A stretch of DNA of 35,336 nucleotides from Eubacteriales bacterium (GTDB lineage Bacteria > Bacillota > Clostridia > Oscillospirales > SIG627). The notes beneath the pieces are model-generated. The model did no database searches, was not told the DNA's origin, and saw only the letters and a list, made by a program, of their open reading frames with translations. Positions 27,092-30,963 of the stretch are shown one piece after another (positions within the stretch are counted from its first letter, which is position 1; every line of letters starts with the position of its first letter). Both the position numbers and the translations under genes were made by a program. The stretch lies in contig JAZNZV010000083.1 in NCBI GenBank assembly GCA_045595105.1, positions 1 to 35,336 of the forward strand, in the 5' to 3' direction.

Positions 27092-27928
27092 TTATCTGTA
27101 AACGTGAAATCCGTTGCCCACTATTTGCTGAGACTCAGAATATATTATAAATACGCTGGGGTCAATCTCCTCTATTTTTCGCTGAAAGAGAGGTATCTCC
27201 GAGTCCTTCAGGGCACAGATAAGCACCTGCCTTTCTCCTCCCGTGTACGCTCCCTTGCCCTCGAGAAGCGTAATGCCTCGGGGAGAGGTGGAAACAAGGC
27301 AGCTTGAAATCTCTTCGCCCTTAGACGTAATGACGAAGGCAAGCTTTGAAATGTTCATTTTTGAAATGAGGAAGTCTATTGCAAAGGTAGAAACCGCAAG
27401 AGCGATAATTCCGTAAAGTGCAAGGTCGAACTCACGGAAGACCATGAGAGAAAGAAGAATTACGGCACTGTCAACAACGAGAAGCAGTTTGCCGATGGCA
27501 ACGCTCGGACGGTAATGCTGAATGAGACGGGCTGCAATGTCGGTTCCTCCCGTGGACGCTCCCGCAAGAAGAGTGATGCCTATTCCCACTCCGTAGAACA
27601 CCGAACCGCATATGGTGGCAAGGACAATATCGTTTGTAATGGGTGGCACGTAGGACAAAAGCTCAACGAAAAGAGTCAGCGAAAATGCGCCTACAAGAGT
27701 GTGAAAAACAAACTTTTTCCCCAAAATAAAGAGAGCAATAACAAGGAGAGCTACATTTATCACGGCGTAAGTTACACCGGGCTGAATACCAAGAGTGTGA
27801 TAAACAACGGTAGCCAGACCCGAGACTCCTCCGCCTACAACCTTAGACGGCAGATAAAAGACAGATACTCCGATAGAGGTGAGAAAGGTTCCCACTATTG
27901 TTAAAATAAGCGTTTTTATCTTTGACAT
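27092..27928 (-). CDS. YitT family membrane protein
   Basis: GGVSGL, STGGTDI, RGIT..EGKGAYTG, IDPSVFI, V.GNGF. Confidence 0.9.
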   Translation of the reverse strand: MSKIKTLILTIVGTFLTSIGVSVFYLPSKVVGGGVSGLATVVYHTLGIQPGVTYAVINVALLVIALFILGKKFVFHTLVGAFSLTLFVELLSYVPPITNDIVLATICGSVFYGVGIGITLLAGASTGGTDIAARLIQHYRPSVAIGKLLLVVDSAVILLSLMVFREFDLALYGIIALAVSTFAIDFLISKMNISKLAFVITSKGEEISSCLVSTSPRGITLLEGKGAYTGGERQVLICALKDSEIPLFQRKIEEIDPSVFIIYSESQQIVGNGFHVYR

Positions 27929-27959
27929 AGACTAAATTCCCTTTCGTGTAGTACACGCT

Positions 27960-27988
27960 ATTTTACACCATTACCGCCGAAAAATCAA
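27960..27988 (-). promoter_or_regulatory. Probable promoter of the YitT gene
   Basis: TTGATT-17-TAAAAT. Confidence 0.6.
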
Positions 27989-28098
27989 GCGGTGTTTTTC
28001 ATGATACGCCGAATAATTTGCCGAGAGAGACGAAAAATACAACAAATTTTACGGATTTTCCTCTTTTGACAGGAATGACTGCTTGAATTTTTAAATGC

Positions 28099-28127
28099 TT
28101 GACATATTGTGGCGTTTGTGTTAGAAT
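28099..28127 (+). promoter_or_regulatory. SigA promoter of leader-metY-metA
   Basis: TTGACA-17-TAGAAT with extended TG. Confidence 0.85.
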
Positions 28128-28157
28128 TAACTATCTTTAAGGAGAGGAGAAAAAGTT

Positions 28158-28235
28158 ATGATGATGCTTCGAATGTGCAACTCAAAAAATATGCTTTCTC
28201 CCTGTCTTAGAATGCCCCAAGGGGCAAAGGTATAG
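28158..28235 (+). CDS. Putative Met/Cys-rich leader peptide MMMLRMCNSKNMLSPCLRMPQGAKV (25 aa)
   Basis: Strong SD AAGGAGAGGAG 8 nt upstream; 6 Met and 2 Cys codons; lies between the promoter and a terminator before metY. Confidence 0.8.
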   Translation: MMMLRMCNSKNMLSPCLRMPQGAKV

Positions 28236-28241
28236 CTATTT

Positions 28242-28266
28242 AAGGCAGGGGAGACCTGCTTTTTTT
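28242..28266 (+). terminator. Attenuator terminator in the metY leader
   Basis: GGCAGG-GGAGA-CCTGCT then TTTTTT; its 5' arm overlaps an alternative pairing with 28197-28213. Confidence 0.75.
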
Positions 28267-28314
28267 AATTGAAAAAATCCAACCATAATTCTGCATTCGT
28301 TAAAGGAGAATATT

Positions 28315-29604
28315 ATGTCAAACTACAAAATTGAAACTAAATGTATTCAGTCGGGATACGTTCCCACAAACGGAGAGCCCAGACAGATACCCATCGTTCA
28401 GAGCACTACCTTCAAATATGACACCAGCGAGGACATGGGAAAGCTTTTTGACCTTGAAGCAGAGGGCTATTTCTATACAAGACTTCAGAACCCCACCAAC
28501 GATTACGTTGCAAAGAAGATAGCCGACCTTGAGGGCGGAACTGCGGCAATGCTCACATCATCGGGTCAGGCGGCAAACTTCTATGCTATTTTCAATATTG
28601 CTTCCTGTGGTGACCACGTTGTTGCATCATCTACTATCTACGGCGGTACCTTCAACCTTTTCTCGGTTACTATGAAGAGAATGGGCATTGATTTTACCTT
28701 TGTTTCTCCCTATGCAACCGACGAAGAGATACAGGCGGCTTTCCGTCCCAATACAAAGGCTCTTTTCGGTGAGACTATCGCAAATCCCGCTTTGACTGTC
28801 CTTGATATCGAGCGCTTTGCGAACGTTGCGCACAAGAACGGTGTACCCCTCATTATAGATAACACCTTTGCAACTCCTTTCCTTTGCCGTCCCTTTGAGT
28901 TTGGTGCAGATATCGTAACTCACTCTACAACAAAGTACATGGACGGACATGGTGCAGGAGTTGGCGGCTGTATCGTTGACAGCGGTAAATTCGACTGGAC
29001 AAAGTACCCCGATAAATTCCCCGGTCTTTGTACTCCCGACGATAGCTACCACGGCGTAACCTACACCGAGCGCTTCGGACTTGGCGGTGCATTTATCACT
29101 AAGGCAACAGCTCAGCTCATGCGTGACTTCGGCTCTATTCAGTCACCTCAGAACGCTTTTCTTTTAAACCTCGGTCTCGAAAGCCTCCACGTAAGAATGG
29201 AGCGTCACTCTGCTAATGCATTGAAGGTAGCGACCTTCCTTGAAAGTCATCCCATGGTTTCTTGGGTTAAATACAGCGGACTTCCCTCTGACAGAGACTA
29301 TCCCCTTGCACAGAAATATCTTCCCCTCGGCTCCTGCGGAGTTGTAAGCTTTGGAGTAAAGGGCGGAAGAAGTGCAGCTGAGAAGTTCATGAAGAATCTT
29401 CGCATCGCTTCAATTGAGACACACGTAGCAGATGCCAAGACCTGCTGTCTGCATCCCGCTTCAGCCACACACCGTCAGATGAACGACGCCGAGCTTGAAG
29501 CGGCAGGAGTTTCTCCCGACCTTGTAAGATACTCTTGCGGTATCGAAAACGCAGACGACCTTATTGCTGACATTGCCCAAGCACTTGAAAAGGCGGGTGT
29601 TTAA
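28315..29604 (+). CDS. metY: O-acetylhomoserine aminocarboxypropyltransferase (sulfhydrylase)
   Basis: [37 protein letters not shown]; adjacent to metA. Confidence 0.9.
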
Positions 29605-29606
29605 TA

Positions 29607-30521
29607 ATGCCTATCAGAATACCCAACTCTCTGCCTGCTACCCAAACGCTCATTGACGAAAACATTTTCGTCATGACCGAGACACGGGCTCTGACACAGG
29701 ATATTCGCCCCTTGCAGATACTTCTTTTAAATCTTATGCCCACCAAAATAGTTACCGAAACACAGTTTGCAAGGCTCCTCGGCAACACACCCTTGCAGGT
29801 GGAGCTCGACTTCTTGCAGACTGCCACCCATAAGGCTACCCACACCTCCTCAGACCACCTTCTTGCCTTTTATAAGGTCTTTGACGACATTAAAGACAAG
29901 AAATACGACGGCATGATAATCACGGGCGCTCCCGTTGAGCTCATGCCCTTTGAAGAGGTCAACTATTGGAAAGAGCTTTGTGAGATCATGGAGTGGTCGA
30001 AAACTCACGTAACAAGCACCTTCCACATCTGTTGGGGCGCTCAGGCAGGTCTTTACTATCACTTCGGTATAGGTAAAGAAGTTCTTCCCGAGAAGCTTTT
30101 TGGAGTTTTCCCTCACCGAGTAGTGCACAAAAACGCAATACTTTTCAGAGGCTTTGACGATGAGTTTTTAGTACCTCACTCCCGTCACACCACCGTTGAC
30201 GTTGAAGAGGTAAGACGGGTTCCCGAGCTTAAAATACTCACCCTTTCCGATAAAGCGGGACTTCACTGCTGTATGACTGAAGGCGGACGTCAGATTTTCG
30301 TGACCGGTCATTCCGAATATGACCCCGAAACCTTGAAAAATGAGTATTTGAGGGACAAAAACGCAGGGCTCCCCATAAAGGTTCCCGAAAACTATTTCCC
30401 TCACGACGATGATACCCTTCCCCCTATCGTTAAATGGCGCTCTCACGCCAATCTCCTTTTTTCTAACTGGCTTAATTACTTTGTATATCAAGCGACGCCT
30501 TACGACATCAACGAAATATAA
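29607..30521 (+). CDS. metA: Homoserine O-acyltransferase (MetA family, probably acetyltransferase)
   Basis: [38 protein letters not shown]. Confidence 0.96.
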
Positions 30522-30579
30522 AAAATACTTTGTATTTTTCTGTTCTGCATTCTGCATTAAAAACCCCACGGAGGTTAAA

Positions 30580-30963
30580 ATGAAAAAAATACTTAACGTT
30601 CTTTATACGGTGCTTTGTCATTTTGCTTTGTCTTTTTCGGGAATAATACTTTTCTTCTGGTCGTTTATGAAAGAGGCACAGTATATCGATTATGAGAAAA
30701 TTCTTGTTTTCTTCCGCTTTGCTTTGATATTCGGTGTAGCGTCGGTTATTTTCGCTATACCCAAGATTCCTTACATAGTAAAGCTATCACTGCACTTTGT
30801 AATAAACACCATAGCTTTTGTTGCCACCTTTGCTACCGCAACGGGAATACCACAGATGAGAGCCTTTGTTGTAGGTGCATTGTTCGTTATAATTTACGTT
30901 ATTGTTTTCGCTGTTGTTAAGGGACTTCAGGCTCTTGCAAAGAAGCTGACGAAAAATGTATGA
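30580..30963 (+). CDS. Hypothetical 4-TM membrane protein
   Basis: GGAGG SD before ATG 30580; four hydrophobic segments; overlaps the next start codon. Confidence 0.75.
   Translation: MKKILNVLYTVLCHFALSFSGIILFFWSFMKEAQYIDYEKILVFFRFALIFGVASVIFAIPKIPYIVKLSLHFVINTIAFVATFATATGIPQMRAFVVGALFVIIYVIVFAVVKGLQALAKKLTKNV

Follow-up and report, generated by a model that had tools for sequence, protein, structure and literature searches.

A candidate leader-peptide attenuator with start-proximal methionine codons upstream of metY-metA in Clostridia

The metY-metA locus and its leader

The subject of this report is the region upstream of a metY-metA gene pair in a Eubacteriales bacterium of the order Oscillospirales (class Clostridia). 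The stretch of DNA analyzed, hereafter the window, comprises 35,336 nucleotides (nt) of contig JAZNZV010000083.1, and the assembly holding it amounts to 1.8 Mb in 229 contigs and is 83% complete. A 386-nt intergenic gap, between a YitT-family gene and the metY-like gene, houses a whole leader, consisting of a promoter, a ribosome-binding site, a short open reading frame (sORF) that opens with a cluster of Met codons, and an intrinsic terminator, after which follows the ribosome-binding site of metY (Table 1). From its sequence and its predicted folds, this leader is probably a ribosome-mediated transcription attenuator that senses charged Met-tRNA, and perhaps also Cys-tRNA, before metY-metA.

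Table 1. Positions of the leader, its component parts and the adjacent genes in the window. Abbreviations: ORF, open reading frame; PLP, pyridoxal phosphate.
Feature	Positions	Strand	Evidence or remark
YitT-family membrane gene	27092-27928	minus	Divergent from metY
Promoter: -35, 17-nt spacer, extended -10	28099-28127	+	11/12 consensus matches
Leader ribosome-binding site (region 1 of the proposed switch)	28139-28149	+	Purine run, end 8 nt 5' of the start codon
Leader ORF, 25 codons plus stop	28158-28235	+	Homologous ORFs in eight other species
Proposed regulatory codons: Met1-3, Leu4, minor Arg codon 5, Met6, Cys7	28158-28178	+	Met enrichment, P 1.7e-4
Region 2, pyrimidine-rich 5' antiterminator strand inside the ORF (codons 13-18)	28195-28211	+	ViennaRNA pairing with 28239-28254
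Small G+C hairpin in the antiterminator loop, inside the ORF end	28213-28226	+	Present in folds; 4-pair core kept in 7/7 metY-type leaders
Region 3, 3' antiterminator strand including the terminator 5' arm and loop	28239-28254	+	Predicted pairing with region 2
Intrinsic terminator	28242-28266	+	Stem 28242-28262, 8 pairs, loop of 5; seven T at 28260-28266; -10.8 kcal/mol
metY-like O-acetylhomoserine sulfhydrylase (Cys/Met PLP enzyme), proposed regulated gene 1	28315-29604	+	PF01053, E 1.8e-123
metA, homoserine O-acyltransferase, proposed regulated gene 2	29607-30521	+	PF04204, E 6.1e-139; starts 2 nt after metY

An initial annotation, made from the letters of the window alone, had described a promoter with a 17-nt spacer, a strong Shine-Dalgarno sequence, a 25-codon ORF with Met and Cys at particular codons, a hairpin within an antiterminator, and a terminator, and each of these was found again in the analysis described here. 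The promoter hexamers occupy 28099-28104 and 28122-28127, with TG ahead of the -10 element. Three promoter-like sites were counted in 27700-28700, versus 2.1 ± 1.5 in shuffled sequences, so the promoter match alone is not beyond chance; a comparably strong promoter precedes all nine of the leaders compared below. Intrinsic terminators, too, are not rare among the shuffled sequences. At the other end of the locus, a 184-codon ORF at 30409-30963 (+) overlaps the end of metA; it has no Pfam match, and its true start may be further downstream.

Codons of the leader ORF

In the window, the leader ORF carries Met at codons 1, 2, 3, 6, 12 and 19 and Cys at codons 7 and 16. The binomial probability of three Met in codons 2-6 is 1.7e-4 at a background Met frequency of 2.6%, and at least two Met in the next five codons were found in just 7 of the 841 Met-started frames of the window. 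Counting this one, nine leaders with such an ORF were identified, seven before metY (metY type) and two before metA (metA type). Codons 2-6 hold two or three Met in all nine (P 6.5e-3 to 1.7e-4 each, at the same background); six leaders have Met at codons 1, 2 and 4, the window and L003 at 1, 2, 3 and 6, and L006 at 1, 2 and 5. Extra in-frame codons, two in the window and L003 and one in L006, shift these Met positions. The same keeping of frame is seen in alignment A1 of the seven metY-type leaders, where both indels inside the ORF are 3 nt long, as against 3 of the 12 outside it that are multiples of three. Each of the nine ORFs is 18-25 codons long and has a purine-rich ribosome-binding site 7-10 nt before its start. 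The stop codons vary among leaders yet remain in frame, and the middle and end of the peptide vary freely, with a Met-Pro-x-Gly-Ala-like end in five of the seven metY-type peptides.

A Cys codon follows the last early Met in all seven metY-type leaders, three of which carry three or four Cys (P 4e-3 for L012 and 5e-4 for L008). In both metA-type leaders that position is occupied by Tyr and the peptide contains zero Cys. The additional sensing of Cys-tRNA, raised in the initial annotation, is thus in keeping with the metY type and not with the metA type, and is less secure than the sensing of Met-tRNA. The codon before the last early Met, located at 28170-28172 in the window, is a minor codon in every one of the nine leaders. 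It is CGA in eight of them (37 of 480 Arg codons, or 7.7%, in the long ORFs of the window) and CTA in L003 (14 of 1202 Leu codons, or 1.2%, in the same ORFs). A minor codon among the Met codons may have been selected because it slows decoding, or it may be kept by a constraint on the RNA. Finally, a sequence-blind filter, requiring at least four Met plus Cys in 7 residues with at least two Met among them, was observed to flag exactly the seven leaders among 29 metY upstream regions, and to flag none on the antisense strand.

Distribution and conservation

A metY gene was found in 55 of 61 related genomes, and the upstream regions of the 30 best metY matches were compared. A homologous, alignable leader with the same parts was found in L003, L006, L008, L010, L011 and L012, all of the same genus and with metY 89-99% identical. 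Three further loci of the genus, L004, L005 and L007, have a short plain 5' untranslated region (UTR) before metY, and L013 begins at a contig end. The promoter at the metY locus L009 (genome G012) is strong, and a terminator-like hairpin followed by a T run is kept there too, without the leader ORF or the antiterminator strand; to judge by its sequence, this locus looks like a deletion that removed the sensor. The leader was found in none of the 18 metY loci of other genera (L014-L031). In L003, the spacer between terminator and metY is ~50 nt longer than that of the window and contains several copies of a 5-nt repeat, one copy of which is at 28293-28299 of the window.

A covariance model, R1, was built from alignment A1 and found exactly one copy per genome in 7 of the 16 genomes of the genus. 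When R1 was run on 51 genomes of the family at E<=1, some match was returned in 21 genomes, and the eight best weak matches, none with E above 0.27, were inspected. Two of these (E about 0.025; L046 and L058) are a real, strongly diverged leader from the same genus; the other six proved to be terminators or coding sequence and were discarded. In genomes G015 and G005, the leader stands before a stand-alone metA. Its ORF has 18 codons, with Met at 1, 2 and 4, and is preceded by a ribosome-binding site; the leader also has a pyrimidine tract and a terminator. Altogether the element is present in 9 of the 16 species genomes of the genus, once in each and always before metY or metA, so that the conserved, Met-enriched sORF anticipated in the initial annotation for homologous leaders does exist. 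In a joint alignment of the metY and metA types, the only long invariant block is the ORF start, reading Met, Met, minor codon, Met, and the terminators are left unaligned. A ribosome-binding site, this opening Met block, a pyrimidine tract and a terminator are common to both types, and nothing more.

Wider searches returned the element from the one genus. Two exact-pattern scans, each over one genome per species for 185,579 species, gave five stretches (four of the genus and one chance match) and six stretches (four of the genus and two chance matches), and R1 on 151 genomes of the order gave the window itself and two ordinary terminators. For metA, 500 nt upstream were taken from 60 of the highest-scoring among 345 order genomes with a metA match, 59 of them from other genera, with L065 the one from the same genus. 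None of these 60 regions showed a convincing Met-rich sORF; four passed a loose filter, with candidates that all end at least 256 nt upstream. Eighty metagenome loci whose metY relatives are 73-82% identical were examined as well, and none had a homologous leader. Across the order, the metA and metY upstream regions (L014-L031 and L065-L124) are mostly short 5' UTRs or lie directly behind another gene.

Alternative RNA pairings

The antiterminator predicted by ViennaRNA for the window joins regions 2 and 3 through 16 pairs with one bulge. It overlaps the 5' arm of the terminator, and therefore the two structures are mutually exclusive, as had been claimed in the initial annotation. The register given there for the antiterminator differs by 1-2 nt from that of ViennaRNA and was not retained. 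Of the partners in the switch, the ORF strand and the terminator arm had been correctly recognized; overlooked was a 5' partner, the leader's own ribosome-binding site, which is paired in the predicted fold of the untranslated RNA.

Three helices were predicted by RNAalifold on alignment A1. The ribosome-binding site pairs with the pyrimidine tract of the ORF through 7 pairs, 2 of them with compensatory changes; the small hairpin has 4 pairs and no covariation; and the terminator has 8 pairs, one with G-C to A-U exchanges. The antiterminator was judged by folds of each sequence, since its register differs between sub-lineages and column-wise covariation counts do not apply.

In full-length minimum free energy (MFE) folds of the untranslated RNA, the terminator is formed in eight of the nine leaders, the exception being the window's own sequence, and eight of nine have the ribosome-binding site base-paired to the pyrimidine tract. 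The effect of a ribosome was modeled by a footprint that masks the RNA as far as 14 nt beyond the P site, on a nascent transcript extending to the terminator loop. When the last early Met codon was placed in the A site, the antiterminator was predicted in all nine leaders, and with codon 2 there, in eight; in L008, the codon-2 mask gave another pairing, which also takes the first bases of the terminator 5' arm. Moving the mask to the stop codon gave a predicted terminator in eight of nine leaders (not in L011), and region 2 of the window then paired instead with the ribosome-binding site. These in silico results are in support of the ribosome-mediated Met attenuation put forward in the initial annotation. 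They also delimit its list of stall sites, Met2, Met3, Met6, Met12 and Cys7: codons 2-7 are retained, whereas Met12 is not, as a ribosome there would cover the antiterminator strand.

The terminator stems have energies of -10.5 to -15.7 kcal/mol and are followed by T runs in all nine leaders. The duplex of the ORF 3' part with region 3 has an energy of -19.6 kcal/mol in the window. When the ORF 3' part of each leader was subjected to 500 dinucleotide shuffles, this energy was matched by 1.4% of the shuffles of the window, and over the nine leaders the antiterminator duplex was reached by 1.0-25% of the shuffles, with four leaders at 2% or less. For the duplex of the ribosome-binding site with region 2, p is <=0.014 in five of nine leaders. 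The shuffle test is conservative because the composition is already pyrimidine-rich, and the support for the pairings from each single sequence is modest. In the metA-type leaders, regions 2 and 3 have other sequences and the small hairpin, itself a different one, comes after the stop codon, yet the architecture is the same.

Proposed mechanism

The leader can be described as four regions, namely the leader's ribosome-binding site (region 1), the pyrimidine tract near codons 10-14, in the window codons 13-18 (region 2), the terminator 5' arm (region 3), and the 3' arm with the U run (region 4). Transcription would start from the strong promoter, and the ribosome-binding site and the Met block would emerge first. 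Without a ribosome, the RNA would adopt the form with regions 1:2 and 3:4 paired, and transcription would end before metY. A translating ribosome that waits at codons 2-7 for Met-tRNA, or perhaps Cys-tRNA, would hold region 1 and end 16-25 nt short of region 2, leaving region 2 to pair with the nascent terminator 5' arm, and the polymerase would then read through into metY-metA. When Met-tRNA is plentiful, the ribosome would be over region 2 during the synthesis of regions 3 and 4, with the terminator as the outcome. Translation of the ORF, stalling at the Met codons, termination at the hairpin and the timing of these events are all steps that we infer.

Several features of the leader bear on where sensing could take place. 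Met12 and Met19 cannot be sensing codons, because a stall there would cover region 2. A shortage of initiator Met-tRNA should act like one of elongator Met-tRNA, because initiation complexes also occupy region 1. Whether the delay came at initiation, for want of initiator Met-tRNA, or at codons 2-4, for want of elongator Met-tRNA, the same read-through would thus result, and the occupation of region 1 by initiation complexes would explain why the Met codons are adjacent to the start.

Weighing the evidence

A number of observations weigh against this proposed mechanism. The nine leaders all come from one genus, about six lineages, and because of this the comparative evidence is shallow and not independent; within the same genus, the leader is absent before the orthologous metY of four species (L004, L005, L007 and L009). 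Taken on its own, the leader sequence of the window is no more than suggestive, its single-sequence fold energy being ordinary (z -1.54, with 16 of 200 shuffles folding as well). The p values of the antiterminator in the shuffle test are 0.014, 0.082, 0.096, 0.224, 0.056, 0.010, 0.020, 0.062 and 0.254 for the nine leaders, and those for the pairing of the ribosome-binding site with region 2 are 0.26-0.78 in L006, L010, L011 and L012. In full-length RNA under both masks, the antiterminator is the MFE structure in just five of nine leaders, so that the decision must fall during transcription, that is, under kinetic control. Transcription runs ahead of translation in Bacillus subtilis, a circumstance that makes it more difficult for Firmicutes to couple attenuation to the ribosome. 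The metY-type stop codon is located 6 codons beyond region 2, and a ribosome at the stop codon of L011 no longer blocks the antiterminator. Because eight of nine leaders keep the minor Arg codon down to its nucleotides and the small hairpin is without covariation, some constraint may act on the RNA itself. The sole evidence from an RNA library is a 237-nt contig, >99% identical, which covers 28149-28384 and so includes the sORF, the terminator and the start of metY; the leader region turned up in two sequencing runs, both times as assembled contigs. This contig is compatible with read-through transcripts, proves neither a transcript nor an RNA end, and may be DNA carry-over.

Known RNA families do not account for the leader. 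No match at the Rfam gathering score was found in the whole window, and at E<=10 the interval 27930-28330 gave only five matches (13-17 bits, E 1.5-8.1), with no SAM (S-adenosylmethionine) family among them. The T-box model RF00230 has no match in the leader region, and the SAM-I model RF00162 has none in the window's own genome at its 83% completeness; T-box and SAM-I identities were accordingly rejected for the leader, in agreement with the initial annotation, which had seen no hallmarks of either. A TRAP-like repeat-binding site was also considered and rejected, there being just three triplet repeats, as was a terminator belonging to the neighboring gene, since the upstream gene is divergent. 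The same genome contains nine T-box matches, three of them above the Rfam cut-off and none on the window contig. They precede a sodium:solute symporter, a leuA-like gene, pheS, thrS, two PLP-dependent enzymes and two genes of helix-turn-helix, cupin and AMP-binding type, and the T-box contigs of this genome (G000) are C123, C156, C55, C44, C38, C201, C9 and C63. Rfam searches of 20 metA upstream regions, 19 from other genera and one from the same genus, gave no match, and the control of metY and metA in relatives of the order is not apparent from known RNA families.

Three other explanations of the leader were weighed. It is unlikely, if conceivable, that the leader is translated without reading Met-tRNA as such, acting either as a general sensor of translation capacity or coupling, or as an arrest peptide stalled by a small molecule such as SAM or methionine, in the manner of tnaC, which stalls with tryptophan, and plant CGS1, which stalls with SAM. 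The ORF does look translated, given its ribosome-binding site and frame-keeping indels; the minor codon between the Met codons of all nine leaders would slow any ribosome; and a C-terminal motif is kept in most metY-type peptides. However, the residues conserved at the C-terminus lie where the RNA forms the small hairpin, and the metA-type peptides lack them; the metA type has another hairpin, beyond the stop. The part that all leaders share is the Met block at the ORF start; at that point the nascent chain counts just two to five residues and is too short to fill the exit tunnel. A metabolite-sensing arrest peptide is unlikely because the conserved residues are the first four and the conserved C-terminus of the metY type coincides with an RNA hairpin and is absent from the metA type. 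The association of all nine leaders with Met synthesis genes, moreover, suits a Met-specific signal. A still less probable account is that the terminator is controlled by a protein or other trans-acting factor, or is a constitutive partial terminator, and that the Met-rich ORF is an accident of the lineage. The narrow range of the leader, 9 of 16 genomes of one genus and none in the other genera searched, would fit such an accident, as would its loss in four species and the retention of promoter and terminator-like hairpin without the ORF in L009. Against this, the Met block survives between leader types that are otherwise almost wholly changed, the alternative pairings are rebuilt from different sequences, no repeated protein-binding motif is present, and the Met/Cys-cluster filter matches none of the other 22 metY upstream regions.

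The least probable of the three explanations is a new riboswitch for SAM, methionine or a related metabolite, which would stabilize the helix between purine run and pyrimidine tract, the ORF being incidental or overlaid. That helix has its 2 compensatory pairs and is formed in eight of nine MFE folds, eight of nine leaders preserve the nucleotides of the opening block, the third position of the Arg codon included, and the window's own genome is without a SAM-I match; SAM-III/SMK boxes, likewise, work by sequestering the ribosome-binding site. On the other side, no Rfam family, with all curated SAM classes included, reaches E 1 on the region, and apart from that helix and the terminator the two leader types have no structured core in common. 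The sequence of the loop that this helix closes is free to vary, both indels there are multiples of three, an in-frame start and stop are kept in all nine leaders, and the sole substitution of the Arg codon yields another minor codon.

Comparison with known systems

Classical leader-peptide attenuation is known for Trp, His, Phe, Leu, Thr and Ile/Val. The mechanism is summarized in bioRxiv 10.1101/834739. As in the proteobacterial attenuators (trpL, hisL, pheL, leuL, thrL and ilvL), a short ORF rich in codons for the end product and a terminator precede the first biosynthetic gene, and the position of the ribosome would decide between 1:2 plus 3:4 pairing (terminator) and 2:3 pairing (antiterminator). 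Unlike in those systems, the amino acid here would be Met, with Cys beside it in the metY type; only two or three elongator Met codons are present; and the host belongs to the Clostridia. The regulatory codons, moreover, come right after the start instead of mid-ORF, and region 1 is the leader's own ribosome-binding site. The window leader has no sequence or Rfam match to the proteobacterial attenuators, which are represented in Rfam by the Trp, His, Leu and Thr leaders.

A Leu-rich attenuator peptide is reportedly present in Staphylococcus aureus. Other attenuators of Gram-positive bacteria that depend on an upstream ORF (uORF) are the His leader of hisS/hisZ in bacilli, described in PMC2965389, and the ilvB-II uORF attenuator of Corynebacterium, described in PMC11109978. 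Like these, the window leader is a lineage-restricted sORF with a ribosome-binding site, an antiterminator and a terminator before amino-acid genes, and in both cases such elements stand in for the T-boxes or riboswitches of related species. The Gram-positive uORF attenuators, unlike the window leader, sense His or branched-chain amino acids and have their codon runs inside the ORF. For sulfur amino acids, a more recent addition, mycobacterial polycysteine sORF attenuators that sense Cys are established (bioRxiv 10.1101/834739), and Cys-rich candidate leader peptides of Actinobacteria are given in PMC1262725. The likeness is that ribosome stalling in a short ORF reads, or in the window would read, the supply of sulfur amino acids before Cys/Met genes. 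The mycobacterial and actinobacterial sORFs are leaderless, have C-terminal Cys runs and unmask the following gene's ribosome-binding site without an intrinsic terminator, whereas in the window leader Met codons dominate, the sORF has its own ribosome-binding site, and the output would be termination.

In Firmicutes, met genes are usually assigned to S-box (SAM-I) or Met-specific T-box RNAs, and a met T-box is said to exist in S. aureus. The S-box and Met T-box act in the same pathway and make the same choice between terminator and antiterminator in a 5' leader as is proposed here. Their sensor, unlike that of the window leader, is a SAM aptamer or an RNA that binds uncharged tRNA, and neither model matches the window leader. 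The idea of sensing at the start of a leader ORF has a parallel in the fthC uORF motif of Streptococcus, for which the authors speculate, in PMC11109978, that Met status sets the speed of uORF initiation via initiator tRNA. The fthC uORF precedes a gene of one-carbon metabolism, is proposed to act on translation and, as far as the accessible text goes, is described without a Met-codon cluster. In the accessible sections of the respective surveys, no RNA element was observed for methionine operons of Actinobacteria (PMC1262725), and Met is mentioned only for T-boxes and SAM riboswitches among premature terminators (PMC2965389). A full-text literature search, which did not cover the supplementary candidate lists of PMC11109978 and PMC2965389, did not turn up any met gene preceded by a leader-peptide attenuator with Met codons. 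It can be suggested tentatively, with rather more doubt than attaches to the attenuator itself, that the window leader is the first Met-specific ribosome-mediated attenuator, sensing at the ORF start with its own ribosome-binding site as region 1, and with a Cys codon as a second sulfur input in the metY type.

Implications and a possible second case

A leader built on Met codons is conceptually awkward, because Met starts every protein and a shortage would therefore also block the start of the leader's own translation. If the proposed mechanism is true, the sensing end of the switch is where both the ribosome-binding site and the Met codons lie, which suggests a way round this objection. Leader-peptide attenuation itself is textbook knowledge; what would be new is Met as the amino acid sensed, the position next to the start, the restriction to a genus and the possible Cys input. 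On this interpretation, uncultured Clostridia of gut and rumen would replace riboswitches by short-lived, genus-level peptide attenuators that are missed by annotation pipelines and by Rfam.

A different sORF was observed on two near-identical metagenome contigs, L185 (positions 210-428) and L186, whose metY is 75% identical to that of the window. This sORF of 46 codons is unrelated to the window leader, and its codons 13-21 specify three Met, five Cys and one Met. It is followed by a terminator-like hairpin of 11 pairs with a U run and is located ~290 nt before metY, with an ORF fragment resembling a lipoprotein signal and a weak promoter lying between the sORF and metY. A DNA search with the L185 leader in 401 genomes of the order returned one marginal match of 39 nt. 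From its sequence, the L185/L186 sORF may be an independent Met/Cys-sensing leader, and it hints that such sensors arose more than once.

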